Shown: piece after piece, positions 2,971 through 35,043 of the stretch
How the letters are laid out: each line of letters opens with the position of its first letter
Numbering within the stretch: the first letter of the stretch is position 1
DNA from: Escherichia phage phiWec179
Strand: one strand, 5' to 3'
DNA length: 64,000 bases
Sequence record: LC739533.1
Notes under the pieces: generated by a model
The model's input: the letters and a program-made list of their open reading frames with translations, nothing else
Databases searched by the model: none
Told to the model about the DNA's origin: nothing
Position numbers and translations under genes: made by a program

Positions 2971-3177
2971 TCAATCGTTATTAGGCTTCCATTTTACAAA
3001 CTTGAAGCAGTTATTGTCAAGGAATTTATTGGCATCTTTTTCCTGTTTCCAAACGGTGCATTGTTCTTTAAGGGCTATCTGTTCATTCTGCACATCTGAT
3101 ACCACATCAGCAAGGAGGATCAGAAATCCCAAAAAGACCAACATCAATAACAGATTAAAGAAAGTTTGAAAACTCAT
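2971..3177 (-). CDS. small membrane protein
   Basis: GGAGG + ATG at 3177; hydrophobic FNLLLMLVFLGFLILL. Confidence 0.4.
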   Translation of the reverse strand: MSFQTFFNLLLMLVFLGFLILLADVVSDVQNEQIALKEQCTVWKQEKDANKFLDNNCFKFVKWKPNND

Positions 3178-9072: not shown

Positions 9073-9285
9073 TCACTTATTCATAGAAGCAGGAAGAATC
9101 GAATGACACTTCCTGCACACTTTCACTTTAACAAGATTATCACTCCCTTCTGCGTAAATCAAAGCTTCTTTCAACTTATTCCCACACGAACAATACTCTG
9201 TTAGGTCCAGGGGAACATCAAAAAGCCCGTAATCGCTCTCATATTGTTTCTTACACAACGAAACCACTCTTGTAAAGTAAGACAT
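9073..9285 (-). CDS. hypothetical Cys-rich protein (possible zinc ribbon)
   Basis: CSCGNK ... CRKCHS cysteine pairs. Confidence 0.4.
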   Translation of the reverse strand: MSYFTRVVSLCKKQYESDYGLFDVPLDLTEYCSCGNKLKEALIYAEGSDNLVKVKVCRKCHSILPASMNK

Positions 9286-9288
9286 TTC

Positions 9289-9510
9289 TTATTCCTCGAT
9301 CACTTCTACATCCCAAGAGAAGAATACATAGTCACAACCTTCCCAAACATCATCCTCCAGGATCTCACAACCTTCCACTTTAGCCATCTCTTCTTGGGAA
9401 ACGAAGAATGTTTGCAGATCATCGCTGAAAAGGTGTGCTTCAACAACAAAAGGAAGCTGAACGTTCTCGAAACCTACATAGCCTGTAACATCAATAATCT
9501 TAATTTTCAT
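9289..9510 (-). CDS. hypothetical protein
   Basis: tiled ORF, 73 aa. Confidence 0.4.
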   Translation of the reverse strand: MKIKIIDVTGYVGFENVQLPFVVEAHLFSDDLQTFFVSQEEMAKVEGCEILEDDVWEGCDYVFFSWDVEVIEE

Positions 9511-9701
9511 GATGGTTCTCCTTTATAAAGTAAACCTCTTAGTTCGCATTCTGCCACCAATAGACGGTTGGCTTGATTGTCCATAGACACGTCTATCTCC
9601 ACACTCCAAGCATTAATATACACTTCGTTGATCTTTGCGTCAAGCATTTGTGCAACTAAAGCTACGGCTCCAGCATATTCAAGTTTGATCTCTATAATCA
9701 T
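9507..9701 (-). CDS. hypothetical protein
   Basis: tiled ORF, 64 aa. Confidence 0.4.
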   Translation of the reverse strand: MIIEIKLEYAGAVALVAQMLDAKINEVYINAWSVEIDVSMDNQANRLLVAECELRGLLYKGEPS

Positions 9702-9985
9702 TTAAGATGATCCCTTACCCATTGGATACGGACAGCATTGAGATGAGAACCATCTTCCTTGTATTCTTTCGCGTAATCATCCCAATCCTTATTGAACGGG
9801 AGTTCTGGGTCCAACCCCGCAGCTTCAAACTGTTTTGACATTTCATACAGCAAATCATCATCACAATAACCGAAGAAATAGAGATTAGTACATAAACCCC
9901 ATTCACGGCGGAAAGGATTACCGTCTGGCGCTCCCGCGTCCACCCAATCTGCGTAAGCTTGATAGAACTCTCGTAATGTTTTCAT
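9698..9985 (-). CDS. paralog family A protein
   Basis: AAGGGGTGG + ATG at 9985; LREFYQAYADWVDAGAP...GLCTNL...SKQF...LPFN...HLNAVRIQWVRDHL. Confidence 0.55.
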   Translation of the reverse strand: MKTLREFYQAYADWVDAGAPDGNPFRREWGLCTNLYFFGYCDDDLLYEMSKQFEAAGLDPELPFNKDWDDYAKEYKEDGSHLNAVRIQWVRDHLK

Positions 9986-10140
9986 AACCACCCCTTATCT
10001 TGATAACCTTTAGAAAACCCTTCTTCCCACTCTTGAAACTGTTCAGGATGTTTATTGGGATCGTAAGGATTGTGGCGGCAAAACATGCCGAATTTATAAC
10101 CCTGTGCGTAGCCTTTATCGAATGCGTTCTTACTCTCCAT
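9982..10140 (-). CDS. small protein with ribosome-modulation-factor-like motif (tentative)
   Basis: GGAGAG + ATG at 10140; 52 aa; stop overlaps next start (TTATGA); KGYAQGY..G...NPY......W..GF pattern resembles Rmf. Confidence 0.35.
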   Translation of the reverse strand: MESKNAFDKGYAQGYKFGMFCRHNPYDPNKHPEQFQEWEEGFSKGYQDKGWL

Positions 10141-10152
10141 TGTTCTCTCCTC

Positions 10153-10425
10153 TTATTCAACGTTCCAGAAAACACCCCGTTTATCTGTAATGTCTATACG
10201 ATACTCCTCCCACATCTTAGTTACAAGAGGTCTTTTCACATAACCGTGAAAATAAACTTCAGAATGCACCCCGTAAGCTGTGTAATTGTCAACAGTCCCT
10301 TCTACCTTGAAGATCACCATGTCTCCACCTAAAAATCTTTCAAAAACCAAGGTGAAACAGTCGAACTTAACAACGTCTCCCTCGAAGAGGGAGATATCTT
10401 TCACCTTACAGAAATGTCCGATCAT
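10153..10425 (-). CDS. hypothetical protein
   Basis: tiled ORF, 90 aa. Confidence 0.45.
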   Translation of the reverse strand: MIGHFCKVKDISLFEGDVVKFDCFTLVFERFLGGDMVIFKVEGTVDNYTAYGVHSEVYFHGYVKRPLVTKMWEEYRIDITDKRGVFWNVE

Positions 10426-10434
10426 TTTCTCTCC

Positions 10435-10626
10435 TTAATACACATCACCTACAAACCAGATTTCTGGATCGCCATACTGATCCTTCTCGTAAGATTTGTA
10501 GACACTACAGCAATATTTCAAAACACCGTCCACAAGGATTGTTGATCTTTCTTCTGGAATCTCTGTGATCTCCCCTTTGCGGGTTTCGAAGATGGTATCA
10601 CCCTTTTCAATTAGTCGGATTTTCAT
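10435..10626 (-). CDS. hypothetical protein
   Basis: tiled ORF, 63 aa. Confidence 0.4.
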   Translation of the reverse strand: MKIRLIEKGDTIFETRKGEITEIPEERSTILVDGVLKYCCSVYKSYEKDQYGDPEIWFVGDVY

Positions 10627-10627
10627 A

Positions 10628-10825
10628 TCATACCTCCCTCAATGCGATTAGTGCGTTCACCAGATTATCAACACCTTGAGCATCCAGGGCAATAACATCA
10701 AAGTTAAACCCTGTATCAGTTGGGACTTTACGTGTTATGGTGTAATAATCCTCTGCATGACGTTCAACATATGCGTATGGGTAACTGGTGTTCGGATCAT
10801 GTTTTACGCGAATAGATGTTTTCAT
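10628..10825 (-). CDS. hypothetical protein
   Basis: tiled ORF, 65 aa. Confidence 0.4.
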   Translation of the reverse strand: MKTSIRVKHDPNTSYPYAYVERHAEDYYTITRKVPTDTGFNFDVIALDAQGVDNLVNALIALREV

Positions 10826-11295
10826 GTTTTGTTCTCCTCTTTAGTTGCAACACGGAACTTATTAGCTTCTCTCACCTGGAACATGAAGTCTTTCTTCTTC
10901 ATAATCCCGATGGACATTTCATCCAGTTCTTCTGGATGGATCTGGAGATTACGGCGATCGGACAGGAACCAAGATTTCTCCCACCAGAAGCGTTGATCCT
11001 CCTCCTTGTGGTGCTTGTATTCCTCTTTTTCTTTTTCTGTGAGGATCTTGAAGCGATTCTTTCCTTCCCAACGCATTGCTGTGTTAAAAGGAATACCGTT
11101 ATCCCCATTATACACTGCGGAAGTAGGAAGGCAATAGCCAGTTTCTGCGTCGATCATTTGGTAGTGAAATTCACATTCCAGTTCAACGTACTCTAAATCC
11201 CCATAAAAATCACTGATCAAGAAAGCAATGTAAGTTTCACCATGTTCGGGAACAAATTCTTGCTTTGTCAACATCTCCAGTTTCAAACCTGCCAT
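10822..11295 (-). CDS. hypothetical protein
   Basis: tiled ORF, 157 aa. Confidence 0.5.
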   Translation of the reverse strand: MAGLKLEMLTKQEFVPEHGETYIAFLISDFYGDLEYVELECEFHYQMIDAETGYCLPTSAVYNGDNGIPFNTAMRWEGKNRFKILTEKEKEEYKHHKEEDQRFWWEKSWFLSDRRNLQIHPEELDEMSIGIMKKKDFMFQVREANKFRVATKEENKT

Positions 11296-11307
11296 TGCTT
11301 TCTCCTT

Positions 11308-11541
11308 TTAGTCGAACCAGTTATATTCAGAAGGGTAACGCGCATAGTTTGGCTTATACCCCAGCCTTTTCATCTTAACAGACATACGAGTGAAGCCAAA
11401 GGTTTTTTTGCCCTTAGACATAAACTTCTTCCCACTCTTCATTGGCTTCTTAGGGTCTTTGATCGCCTGGTTTAACGCTCGCGCAAGCCACAAAGTGTAT
11501 GCGCTCGGTGCTTGGTTAACTTTCATCTTGTTACCCTTCAT
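11308..11541 (-). CDS. hypothetical basic protein
   Basis: 77 aa, Lys-rich. Confidence 0.45.
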   Translation of the reverse strand: MKGNKMKVNQAPSAYTLWLARALNQAIKDPKKPMKSGKKFMSKGKKTFGFTRMSVKMKRLGYKPNYARYPSEYNWFD

Positions 11542-11552
11542 ACGATCTCCTC

Positions 11553-11765
11553 TTATAAAATTTCAAGTTCTTCGAGTGTTTCTTTCAGGGAAACTGGCAA
11601 ATCACACTCCACATCCAGCATCGAAACCAACCAAGAGGTGGCTTCGGCTAACTTCTGGTAATCATCATACAACACATAACCCCCTTCGTCAACCTCTACG
11701 ATGCAACGATAAGATGCAAAAGGGTTTTTGCTCATTTCTTCAATGTCATAACGTTCAACAACCAT
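11553..11765 (-). CDS. hypothetical protein
   Basis: ATG at 11765 (MVVERYD); shares YxDYQxLAxA segment with 8546..8992. Confidence 0.4.
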   Translation of the reverse strand: MVVERYDIEEMSKNPFASYRCIVEVDEGGYVLYDDYQKLAEATSWLVSMLDVECDLPVSLKETLEELEIL

Positions 11766-12067
11766 TATTTCACCTCTGACCAATCAACAGTAATACATTG
11801 ATAAGCTTGATGATTTATGTCCAATTCAATATAAACCACAAGCCCACGCTCGCGGAGTGCTGTTACCACCATATACATTAACTCGCGCTGTCTGGCGATC
11901 CCATCTTGGGAAAGAGGACGATTACAGAAGCCAAAATCAGAGGGCGTGAAATCCCGTTGGTAATTTCCCGCCCGTGCTTCTGAAAAACACGTCTCAATAA
12001 CCTCTTCAATAGGAAAACCGATGGAAGCTTCTTTGGCAATACTGCGTAACTGTTCGGTCAAATTCAT
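11765..12067 (-). CDS. hypothetical protein
   Basis: tiled ORF, 100 aa. Confidence 0.45.
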   Translation of the reverse strand: MNLTEQLRSIAKEASIGFPIEEVIETCFSEARAGNYQRDFTPSDFGFCNRPLSQDGIARQRELMYMVVTALRERGLVVYIELDINHQAYQCITVDWSEVK

Positions 12068-12132
12068 TTCATTTCTCCTCTCGTCTGTGTATGCAAAGAT
12101 TATCTACCAACGTGATCCTTATGTCAAGCTAT

Positions 12133-33041: not shown

Positions 33042-34181
33042 TTAGAACACGCTACTTAAGGTTGCAGATCGTGTAGTGGTTGGTTCCAGAACCACACGGA
33101 ACGTATCCCCAGGTTTATCGCTCACTACTACAATCTTACCACCTTCGATCAGGTCACACTTCAAACCTTCGGCAGTAGCTTTCAGGTCGATGCGTGGATC
33201 GCCATCATCATCCAGGATAACGTAGCTGCTATCTTCGAGAGGCTCCAGTTCTTCGTCTTTCACGGCTTCCAGGTAGATGTTCAGTTCACATGCACCAGAC
33301 AAGAACTTGGTAGGAGTGAACTCATGCCAGTTGTTGACCCAGTTAGGCTTGATAGCTTTACCGTTGACAACAATAGAGCTAATCGTCCAGCGTGCATCGT
33401 TACCCAGAGAGATACCCATCATCTCCAGACAGGTCTTGAACGTCATTTTCGGATAGAAGTTTAACTCTTCTACGATCCCTTGAATAACATCGAAAGACAG
33501 TTCAGTGCTAACATCCCACAAACGTTGGAAGCTTTCAACATGTTTGCGATTCTTCAGATTCTTGTCCAGGTAGTCCAGCATAGTTTCAATAGACAGTTTG
33601 TCGTAGTTGAAGCTATAGAAGATACGGCTCGGACGGTTGACGAAGTATTCCGAGATGTATCCGCTGTTCTTTGTCAGCATGAACAGTTTGTTACCGCTAC
33701 CTGTGCCATCCAGCAGAGTCAGCAGTGCTTCCTGATCTTCCTTCTTGGAATACACTTTGTCGAACTCATCGAACAGTACTACTGCGCGTTCAGAGATCTT
33801 ACTCATGAACTCCAGGAAATTGGCATCAGAATATGGCTGCGTTACCAGAATAGTTGGGATTCCCAGGTCTTCCGCTTCCAACAGAGTGTTACTGATCAGT
33901 TTTGCCAGCATTGTCTTGCCACTGCCTTTTGTACCCGACAACAGGACACCTGTGTTCTTACCTTCTTTACTACGACGAGCGAAGGTACGGATAACGTGGG
34001 CTGCACGTTCTTTGGTTTCCCCGTACAGGCGATCAGGAATCGTGAACTTATCAGCGCGACTAAGAGAATAGTTACCATGTGGATCACAATTGACAGTCCA
34101 AACGCCAGCGGGGAGTTTATCAACCTCTACACCAAAATCTTTATTAACAATTGCAACATCCCCATAAACTGTGTATTTCAT
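33042..34181 (-). CDS. P-loop NTPase (AAA+-like ATPase)
   Basis: Walker A GTKGSGKT, Walker B VVLFDEFD; 379 aa. Confidence 0.6.
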   Translation of the reverse strand: MKYTVYGDVAIVNKDFGVEVDKLPAGVWTVNCDPHGNYSLSRADKFTIPDRLYGETKERAAHVIRTFARRSKEGKNTGVLLSGTKGSGKTMLAKLISNTLLEAEDLGIPTILVTQPYSDANFLEFMSKISERAVVLFDEFDKVYSKKEDQEALLTLLDGTGSGNKLFMLTKNSGYISEYFVNRPSRIFYSFNYDKLSIETMLDYLDKNLKNRKHVESFQRLWDVSTELSFDVIQGIVEELNFYPKMTFKTCLEMMGISLGNDARWTISSIVVNGKAIKPNWVNNWHEFTPTKFLSGACELNIYLEAVKDEELEPLEDSSYVILDDDGDPRIDLKATAEGLKCDLIEGGKIVVVSDKPGDTFRVVLEPTTTRSATLSSVF

Positions 34182-34249: not shown

Positions 34250-34609
34250 TTAGATCCCTTCGCCTTTAGTGATGATAGCTTCCATCACCACAGCTTTCTT
34301 CTTACGTTGAACATCTTGACGGATCAGGAGGCTACCACCTTGATCATCCTTATACTGCTTCATGATGATGAAGTTGTTGCCACACACAGCGCCGATAGCC
34401 ACGTATGGGCGATTAGAATTATCCACATCCGCAGATGGGGTTACATCCGTGCAAGTAAAGAACTTGCCATCAGGATCAGTATAAGCAAAGTGGCCTTTAG
34501 CAGTTACTGCAACTTCTCCGGTGCTTGTGGACTGTGCAGCCACAAACGGTGCAGCAGATGCTACGAAACTTGCAGACAGCAGGGCTACAGCTAAAATAAT
34601 CTTTTTCAT
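34250..34609 (-). CDS. secreted protein
   Basis: signal-peptide-like MKKIILAVALLSASFVASA. Confidence 0.5.
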   Translation of the reverse strand: MKKIILAVALLSASFVASAAPFVAAQSTSTGEVAVTAKGHFAYTDPDGKFFTCTDVTPSADVDNSNRPYVAIGAVCGNNFIIMKQYKDDQGGSLLIRQDVQRKKKAVVMEAIITKGEGI

Positions 34610-34619
34610 GGTGATCTCC

Positions 34620-34781
34620 TCTTATTCCAACAACATACACAATGCAGCTACAACCAAGAACAGAGTAGCCACGCTTAAAGCGATAAACATTCCTAATTGA
34701 GAATGAAATTCGCCTATGATAGGTGCAGACAACGCACTTAGCAAACAACCTGTCAAACTTGCTTTGATAATAAGATCTAAC
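34620..34781 (-). CDS. small membrane protein (53 aa)
   Basis: AGGAGG + ATG; two hydrophobic segments; below ORF-track cutoff. Confidence 0.35.
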
Positions 34782-34791
34782 ATATTACCTC

Positions 34792-35043
34792 CTACAATTC
34801 CACAATAGTTTTATCTAAGTGGTGTGCCTCAACTTGAGATAAGGTTAGCACTTCAACCAAACCTCTGTCAATACCTAATTTGATCACTTGCAAATAATCA
34901 CCGAAAAGATCAGAGATTTCAATCTGGTGTTCAGTAACCACCACGACCTCGTTACCCTTGGTATACTCTCTCCAGATTCGTCCACACTTATAAATGAAAT
35001 CTTTCTGGTCTTCACTGATCATCTTAGGCTTAACGCTTAACAT
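34792..35043 (-). CDS. hypothetical protein
   Basis: 83 aa. Confidence 0.45.
   Translation of the reverse strand: MLSVKPKMISEDQKDFIYKCGRIWREYTKGNEVVVVTEHQIEISDLFGDYLQVIKLGIDRGLVEVLTLSQVEAHHLDKTIVEL

Follow-up and report, generated by a model that had tools for sequence, protein, structure and literature searches.

The bacterial ribosome modulation factor Rmf is the closest described counterpart of the protein analyzed here. The E. coli factor (PF04957, NF011162; PDB 6H4N, 4V8G and 2JRM) is a strongly basic protein of 55 aa encoded by a chromosomal gene that is induced in stationary phase. It attaches to the 30S subunit and, jointly with HPF, turns 70S ribosomes into 100S particles. In the ribosome, its residues Arg3, Lys5, Arg8, Arg11 and Arg15 form hydrogen bonds with the backbone of the 16S rRNA, its N-terminal extension intertwines with S7, and Arg37, Glu10 and Gln39 contact domain 4 of S1 (Beckert et al., bioRxiv 10.1101/382572). 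Proteins with the same fold-core motif are also found on mobile elements, such as CrpP of the P. aeruginosa plasmids and ICEs, and are similarly small (about 45-70 aa). The existing NCBIfam models for these proteins bear the names "Rmf/CrpP family protein" and "Rmf/CrpP fold protein" (Rmf_like_phage); CrpP is the one "characterised" member other than Rmf, and its function is disputed. Our search of the literature on phage-encoded Rmf, "Rmf-like" phage proteins and viral hibernation factors found nothing pertinent.

Here we describe a gene of this type in a 64,000-nt stretch of DNA of Escherichia phage phiWec179 (LC739533.1), which is referred to below as the window. The gene encodes a 52-aa protein and occupies positions 9982..10140 on the minus strand. 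The initial annotation, which was made from the sequence alone, had pointed out that the product resembles the GY.AG...CPY....W..GW core of Rmf. The direct family of the protein is PHROG 26347, represented by gp249 of phage phAPEC8 (UniProt K7QKG1), together with counterparts from Vequintavirinae. Based on the comparisons presented below, we assign the 52-aa protein to the Rmf/CrpP-fold superfamily, as a phage representative belonging to PHROG 26347, and do not regard it as an equivalent of Rmf.

Structure and conservation of the gene

The open reading frame (ORF) starts with the ATG codon at 10140..10138, ends with the TGA codon at 9984..9982 and encodes the product MESKNAFDKGYAQGYKFGMFCRHNPYDPNKHPEQFQEWEEGFSKGYQDKGWL. 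The region 5′ of the ORF reads TAA-GAGGAGAG-AACA-ATG, and the Shine-Dalgarno (SD) sequence (10145..10152, minus strand) is therefore placed directly behind the stop codon of the upstream gene (TAA, 10155..10153) and 4 nt in front of the ATG. This SD sequence is strong, its spacing is optimal, and it includes the GGAGAG motif (10150..10145) that had been rated as a good SD at the outset. The upstream gene itself is a 90-aa CDS without any family match (10153..10425, minus strand), which ends 12 nt before the start codon. On the other side, the ORF is followed by a 95-aa CDS (9698..9985, minus strand) belonging to PHROG 2510, a family without assigned function. The ATG codon of this downstream gene (9985..9983) overlaps the stop codon of the 52-aa ORF. 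The TTATGA overlap described earlier is indeed present, in the form of an ATGA stop/start overlap (9982..9985, minus strand) embedded in TTATGA, and it is from this arrangement that we infer translational coupling of the two genes.

The DNA of the window is 100% identical to that of Escherichia phages phiWec181 and phiWec186 (Phapecoctavirus, Stephanstirmvirinae). In the GenBank record LC739534, the ORF is already entered as CDS BDU12371.1 and labelled "hypothetical protein", and its earlier description as unannotated therefore applied to the gene track used at that time and not to the public record. In a large protein collection, the identical protein constitutes a 14-member cluster that carries the JGI label "ribosome modulation factor", and a word-indexed protein search with the single query sequence recovered only this cluster.

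A tblastn search revealed a homologue in 83 phage records, with exactly one locus per record. The homologue was 98-100% identical in five Phapecoctavirus records and about 66% identical in approximately 70 further records of the same genus, while the identity reached 50-63% in the Vequintavirinae phages W70, A73, KaOmega and PcCB7V. Two weak matches (E values of 3-8), in Acinetobacter phage Lazarus and Klebsiella phage Kmi2C, were left out of the family. It should be noted that phage records labelled Pseudomonas (OR584014, PsgM04F), Acinetobacter (OP562383, ABPW7) and Campylobacter contain DNA that is 90-95% identical to E. coli Phapecoctaviruses, and these host labels look doubtful.

In codon alignments of the homologues, the synonymous sites were saturated, with pS values of 0.67-1.1 versus pN values of 0.24-0.33. 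One close pair, KaOmega and PcCB7V, was unsaturated and yielded a dN/dS ratio of 0.05. The PHROG 26347 profile aligned residues 6-52 of the protein with positions 8-54 of 54 (E value of 1.5e-21, 77 bits), and the homologues from phAPEC8, W70 and P0002 shared 62-69% identity with it. Collectively, the ORF list, the GenBank entry, the PHROG and NF011162 matches, the homologues and the purifying selection identify the CDS, and the 52-aa ORF is a genuine conserved phage gene.

Relationship to Rmf and the predicted fold

The profile search against the Rmf family proposed in the initial annotation gave a divided answer. The NCBIfam Rmf equivalog model NF011162 was the sole family match of the protein among the NCBIfam models and aligned residues 4-48 with the full model length (positions 3-47 of 47) at an E value of 1.2e-5, but the score of 25 bits was below the 40-bit cut-off and the Pfam scan gave no match to RMF (PF04957) even at E ≤ 10, only noise (GDH_HM2 and Yae1_N). 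The models NF041886, NF041856 and NF041887 did not match the protein at E ≤ 10 either, and no relevant match was obtained among PDB sequences with phmmer of the query or with a narrow profile of six sequences.

The relatives of the protein proved more informative. Half of the 12 close relatives were also matched by NF011162, and an exhaustive search of 1.84 billion representatives with a 12-member family profile retrieved 61 proteins at E ≤ 1e-3. When 50 single-domain relatives were aligned, Pfam RMF matched 32 of them at E ≤ 1 (best E value of 2e-8) and NF011162 matched 28, while NF041886 (Rmf_CrpP_fam), NF041856 (CrpP_rel_fam) and NF041887 (Rmf_like_phage) matched seven, five and one, respectively. 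Several of the retrieved multi-domain proteins even exceeded the Pfam RMF gathering score, e.g., P0023 with 69.9 bits. The protein itself fits the description of a small Rmf-type helical hairpin encoded on a mobile element, in this case a phage; nevertheless, its link to the Rmf/CrpP mobile-element superfamily is transitive, since it is the relatives and not the query that match the models. The query belongs to a subfamily distinct from these models, which is characterized by the turn NPY, F35, an invariant F42 and a C-terminal (G/E)-W-L.

Comparison of profiles pointed in the same direction. Using hhalign, the wide family of 50 sequences aligned with 20 bona fide γ-proteobacterial Rmf sequences over 44 columns (P = 4.1e-5), whereas the narrow family of 12 sequences gave a weak result against narrow Rmf (P = 0.068). 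The best two matches of the wide-family profile among PDB sequences were E. coli RMF (E values of 0.11-0.13). Finally, the query scored 8.7 bits with an HMM restricted to bona fide Rmf proteins, and this score was reached by 4 of 5000 composition-preserving shuffles. The Rmf-like motif is thus statistically real, though weak. Several independent lines converge in supporting the view that the 52-aa protein is a distant homologue of bacterial Rmf, and the resemblance noted at first sight reflects genuine, if distant, homology as well as a common fold.

AlphaFold2 predicted a hairpin of two helices, as in Rmf, and the five models agreed with one another (pLDDT of 83.5-86.9). The predicted helix 1 spans codons 6-20 (10081..10125, minus strand) and, as judged from the models, the alignments and hhalign, presents a glycine face G10-x3-G14-x3-G18 that corresponds to G16, G20 and G23 of Rmf. 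The loop between the helices has 11 residues in the model, compared with about 11-13 in the RMF fold, and the alignments place in it an N-P-Y turn (codons 24-26; 10063..10071, minus strand) that does not vary within the phage family and corresponds to C29-P30-Y31 of Rmf. The predicted helix 2 (codons 32-50; 9991..10047, minus strand; models and alignments) carries F35, W38, G41, F42 and G45. In a Foldseek search with the model, RMF entries took the first three places and RMF was the best structural match in the PDB; K7QKG1 of phAPEC8 gave a TM score of 0.89.

The two proteins have several conserved positions in common, i.e., G16/G10, Y17/Y11, G20/G14, G23/G18, P30-Y31/P25-Y26, W40/W38, G43/G41 and W44/F42 (Rmf/query). 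Of the Rmf core motif G-Y-x-A-G...C-P-Y...W-L-G-G-W-R, the query therefore keeps G, Y, G, G, P-Y, W, G and one aromatic residue, while C29 is replaced by N, which is invariant in the phage family, L41-G42 by E-E, W44 by F and R45 by S. The residues shared with Rmf are determinants of the hairpin fold, namely the helix-packing glycines, the aromatic core and the Pro-Tyr turn.

The residues through which Rmf contacts the ribosome show a different picture. The N terminus of the 52-aa protein is 6 residues shorter than that of Rmf and the basic arm is absent. There are no equivalents of R3 and K5, and R8, R11 and R15 correspond to E2, N5 and K9, so that four of the five basic residues contacting 16S rRNA are missing. 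The S1-contacting residues R37, E10 and Q39 correspond to F35, K4 and E37. In the phage-family sequences, the Rmf contact columns are basic in 0-58% of cases (8-58% for the columns of the 16S-binding residues), and position 35, the counterpart of R37, is always aromatic or His/Ser. The net charge of the protein is −1 and its pI 6.0, i.e., near neutral, as opposed to +5 to +8 and 10.1-10.9 in the 20 Rmf sequences. The net charge varies from −4 to +5 in the close family and averages −1.6 in the wide family. Some close members are basic, with a net charge of up to +5 and a pI of 9.7, and nucleic-acid binding is therefore possible for the family. Since the conserved positions make up the fold core, while the contact residues and the charge are not kept, the motif recognized in the initial annotation is a fold signature and not a ribosome-binding signature. 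For the same reason, the automatic JGI label "ribosome modulation factor" over-interprets the protein, as the ribosome-binding determinants are not conserved.

The fold itself is widely distributed. In metagenomic proteins of 100-800 aa, the Rmf-like hairpin occurs as 2-5 tandem repeats, as in P0023 (637 aa), P0027 (798 aa), P0034 (505 aa), P0038 (586 aa) and P0024 (200 aa), and also in P0026, P0030 and P0037. It is difficult to see how proteins built in this way could bind in the RMF pocket of the 30S subunit, which is a single site. The excluded Klebsiella phage vB_KmiS-Kmi2C encodes a weak relative of 92 aa (L007, 2968-3246), in which an N-terminal G-x3-G / NPY / W-x2-GF motif is followed by a C-terminal hydrophobic and probably transmembrane helix. 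BFVD contains dozens of uncharacterised proteins with the same hairpin, encoded by unrelated phages. One of these proteins, L7TKK0 of Haloarcula vallismortis tailed virus 1 (HVTV-1), has the same two-helix fold with a TM score of 0.64 over 44 residues, and the fold is therefore not tied to γ-proteobacterial ribosomes. A second haloarchaeal tailed virus, Halogranum tailed virus 1 (H113), encodes a homologue of CCA tRNA nucleotidyltransferase. Given the generality of the fold and the disputed function of CrpP, membership in the fold does not transfer any function.

Genomic context and relocation

The left 31 kb of the window consist almost entirely of small, tightly packed genes on the minus strand without family annotation. 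Pfam and PHROG scans of nine genes neighbouring the 52-aa ORF yielded no functional annotation, and no tRNA was found by a tRNA scan of the 64-kb window. The ORF belongs to a run of genes (9073..12067), upstream of which there is a single sizeable gap of 65 nt. A consensus scan identified in this gap a candidate sigma-70-type promoter, TTGACA-17-GATAAT, that agrees with the consensus at 11 of 12 positions (12099..12127, minus strand). The location of this near-consensus promoter upstream of the gene run suggests that the run may be transcribed early by the host RNA polymerase.

The gene does not occupy the same place as in other Phapecoctaviruses. The family member of phAPEC8 and Mt1B1_P17 is flanked by homologues of the window genes 34792..35043 and 34622..34783 (2980-3144 in both L010 and L003, the loci of the relatives). 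At the same junction of the window (34784-34791, minus strand), there is an 8-nt gap and the Rmf-like gene is cleanly absent; the single copy in the window (9982..10140) is located about 24.7 kb from this usual locus. Conversely, the segment of Mt1B1_P17 that matches the site of the window copy holds an unrelated ORF of 58 aa. The DNA of the window copy was found in only five Phapecoctavirus records, and its next-best DNA matches come from Vequintavirinae (76-80%). This looks like a relocation or replacement in which one copy per genome was kept, and the retention of one copy despite the relocation argues that the product is useful whatever its neighbours.

The region beside the vacated locus (34250-34783, minus strand) encodes a hydrophobic (membrane) protein of 53 aa and a protein of 119 aa whose N terminus resembles a signal peptide. 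Both genes are located upstream of the gene for a 379-aa AAA-type ATPase (33042..34181), and this trio is kept in phAPEC8 and Mt1B1_P17.

Possible functions of the 52-aa protein

Taken together, we consider it rather probable that the ORF is an early phage gene whose product, a distant homologue of Rmf with the Rmf/CrpP fold but not its equivalent, acts as a stoichiometric binder. According to this reading, the gene would be expressed from the long run of small, tightly packed and probably early genes, presumably coupled in translation to its downstream neighbour. The product is predicted to fold into the helical hairpin of the Rmf/CrpP-fold superfamily, with helices at residues 6-20 and 32-50 and the invariant N-P-Y in the 11-residue loop, and lacks what makes Rmf a hibernation factor that binds rRNA and S1: the basic arm at the N terminus, the residues R3/K5/R8/R11 and R37, and a positive net charge. 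Such a protein could serve as a small binding module made early in infection, i.e., as a protein-protein adaptor or inhibitor whose partner would be other than rRNA. Binding to a protein is the most likely mode of action in view of the features that the product lacks. In the absence of the rRNA- and S1-binding residues and of the positive charge, the protein would not be expected to induce 100S particles in the manner of Rmf.

A different connection to translation is suggested by the genes found next to the family member in other phages. In phages of the Vequintavirinae type, the Rmf-like gene either overlaps the gene for CCA tRNA nucleotidyltransferase or lies shortly upstream of it (L002, 2992-4445; L004, 2983-4442; L005, 2968-4427; L014, 5001-6478; L017, 404-2125), and related metagenomic contigs have the same arrangement. 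The block with the CCA gene also carries ClpP, Dam methylase and RlaP and, in PcCB7V, peptidyl-tRNA hydrolase (Pth). The 52-aa protein could then be an accessory of the translation apparatus, either by assisting or regulating tRNA repair (CCA-adding enzyme, RlaP or Pth) or as an anti-hibernation decoy through which the ribosomes of stationary-phase hosts stay active, and the greater similarity of the window copy to the Vequintavirinae-type copies than to the usual Phapecoctavirus copy at the DNA level would agree with this. We nevertheless regard this explanation as unlikely. The adjacency to the CCA enzyme is limited to one syntenic phage lineage, and there is no other sign that the neighbourhood has to do with translation. 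The neighbours of the gene, both at its place in the window and at the locus usual for Phapecoctavirus, are unrelated proteins without assigned function. Furthermore, no homologue of the CCA enzyme was found in the 64-kb window, and among the Escherichia phage records 50 contain such a homologue versus 64 with the Rmf-like gene, which shows that the pairing is not obligatory. As the gene persists without that neighbour, we rejected the idea that the CCA-adding enzyme is its obligate partner. In Klebsiella phage phi1_175008, the gene for a divergent member with 34% identity (L006, 1811-3405) overlaps the beginning of another gene, whose 477-aa product bears the annotation dATP/dGTP pyrophosphohydrolase; this downstream partner differs from the CCA-adding enzyme.

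The initial annotation had gone further and proposed that the protein could promote ribosome hibernation. A functional mimic of Rmf would occupy the RMF pocket of the 30S subunit (the ring of S2/S7/S9/S21 and the anti-SD region) and, in the course of host takeover, would either cause hibernation with formation of 100S particles or block SD-dependent initiation. The homology, the match of the predicted fold to RMF and the JGI cluster name speak for such a role, which we find improbable all the same. The score remained below the NF011162 cut-off without a Pfam RMF match, the N-terminal arm and most of the 16S-contacting basic residues are absent, the S1-contacting R37 is replaced by Phe, the protein is slightly acidic where Rmf is strongly basic, and the same fold is used by a haloarchaeal virus and by repeat proteins. 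In addition, the phage's own genes, the 52-aa ORF included, carry strong SD sequences, and sequestration of the anti-SD would therefore harm the phage. The proposal of ribosome hibernation is thus unsupported, even though the protein may bind the ribosome via a surface different from that used by Rmf.

A broader version of this idea, to which we attach little credence, holds that phage Rmf-fold mini-proteins represent a widespread translation-targeting class and that the 52-aa protein docks to the S1/S7/S21 side of the 30S subunit or to tRNA-repair enzymes and thereby prevents or reverses hibernation. If this were true, Rmf-fold mini-proteins would counter the hibernation of the host and allow phage replication in stationary-phase cells. 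Last, a chance ORF or non-coding spacer with an accidental likeness to the motif is scarcely tenable: short ORFs are common and other ORFs overlap this one on both strands, but we rejected this reading on account of the conservation across diverged phages (83 records) and purifying selection, to which the SD sequence, the ATGA overlap, the confident predicted fold and the profile matches can be added.

The homology of the 52-aa protein to Rmf is already implicit in the public annotation, and it implies no new mechanism. The Rmf-like motif should be taken with caution, as the underlying fold is a simple helical hairpin that phages, plasmids and ICEs commonly encode. If the protein did make contact with the ribosome, a relative of a hibernation factor from γ-proteobacteria would be encoded by a phage, and this would be relevant to the way in which phages deal with dormancy of their hosts. 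Because the family is widespread and a single copy was kept after the gene had moved, the protein is a reasonable, if not urgent, target for functional screening.
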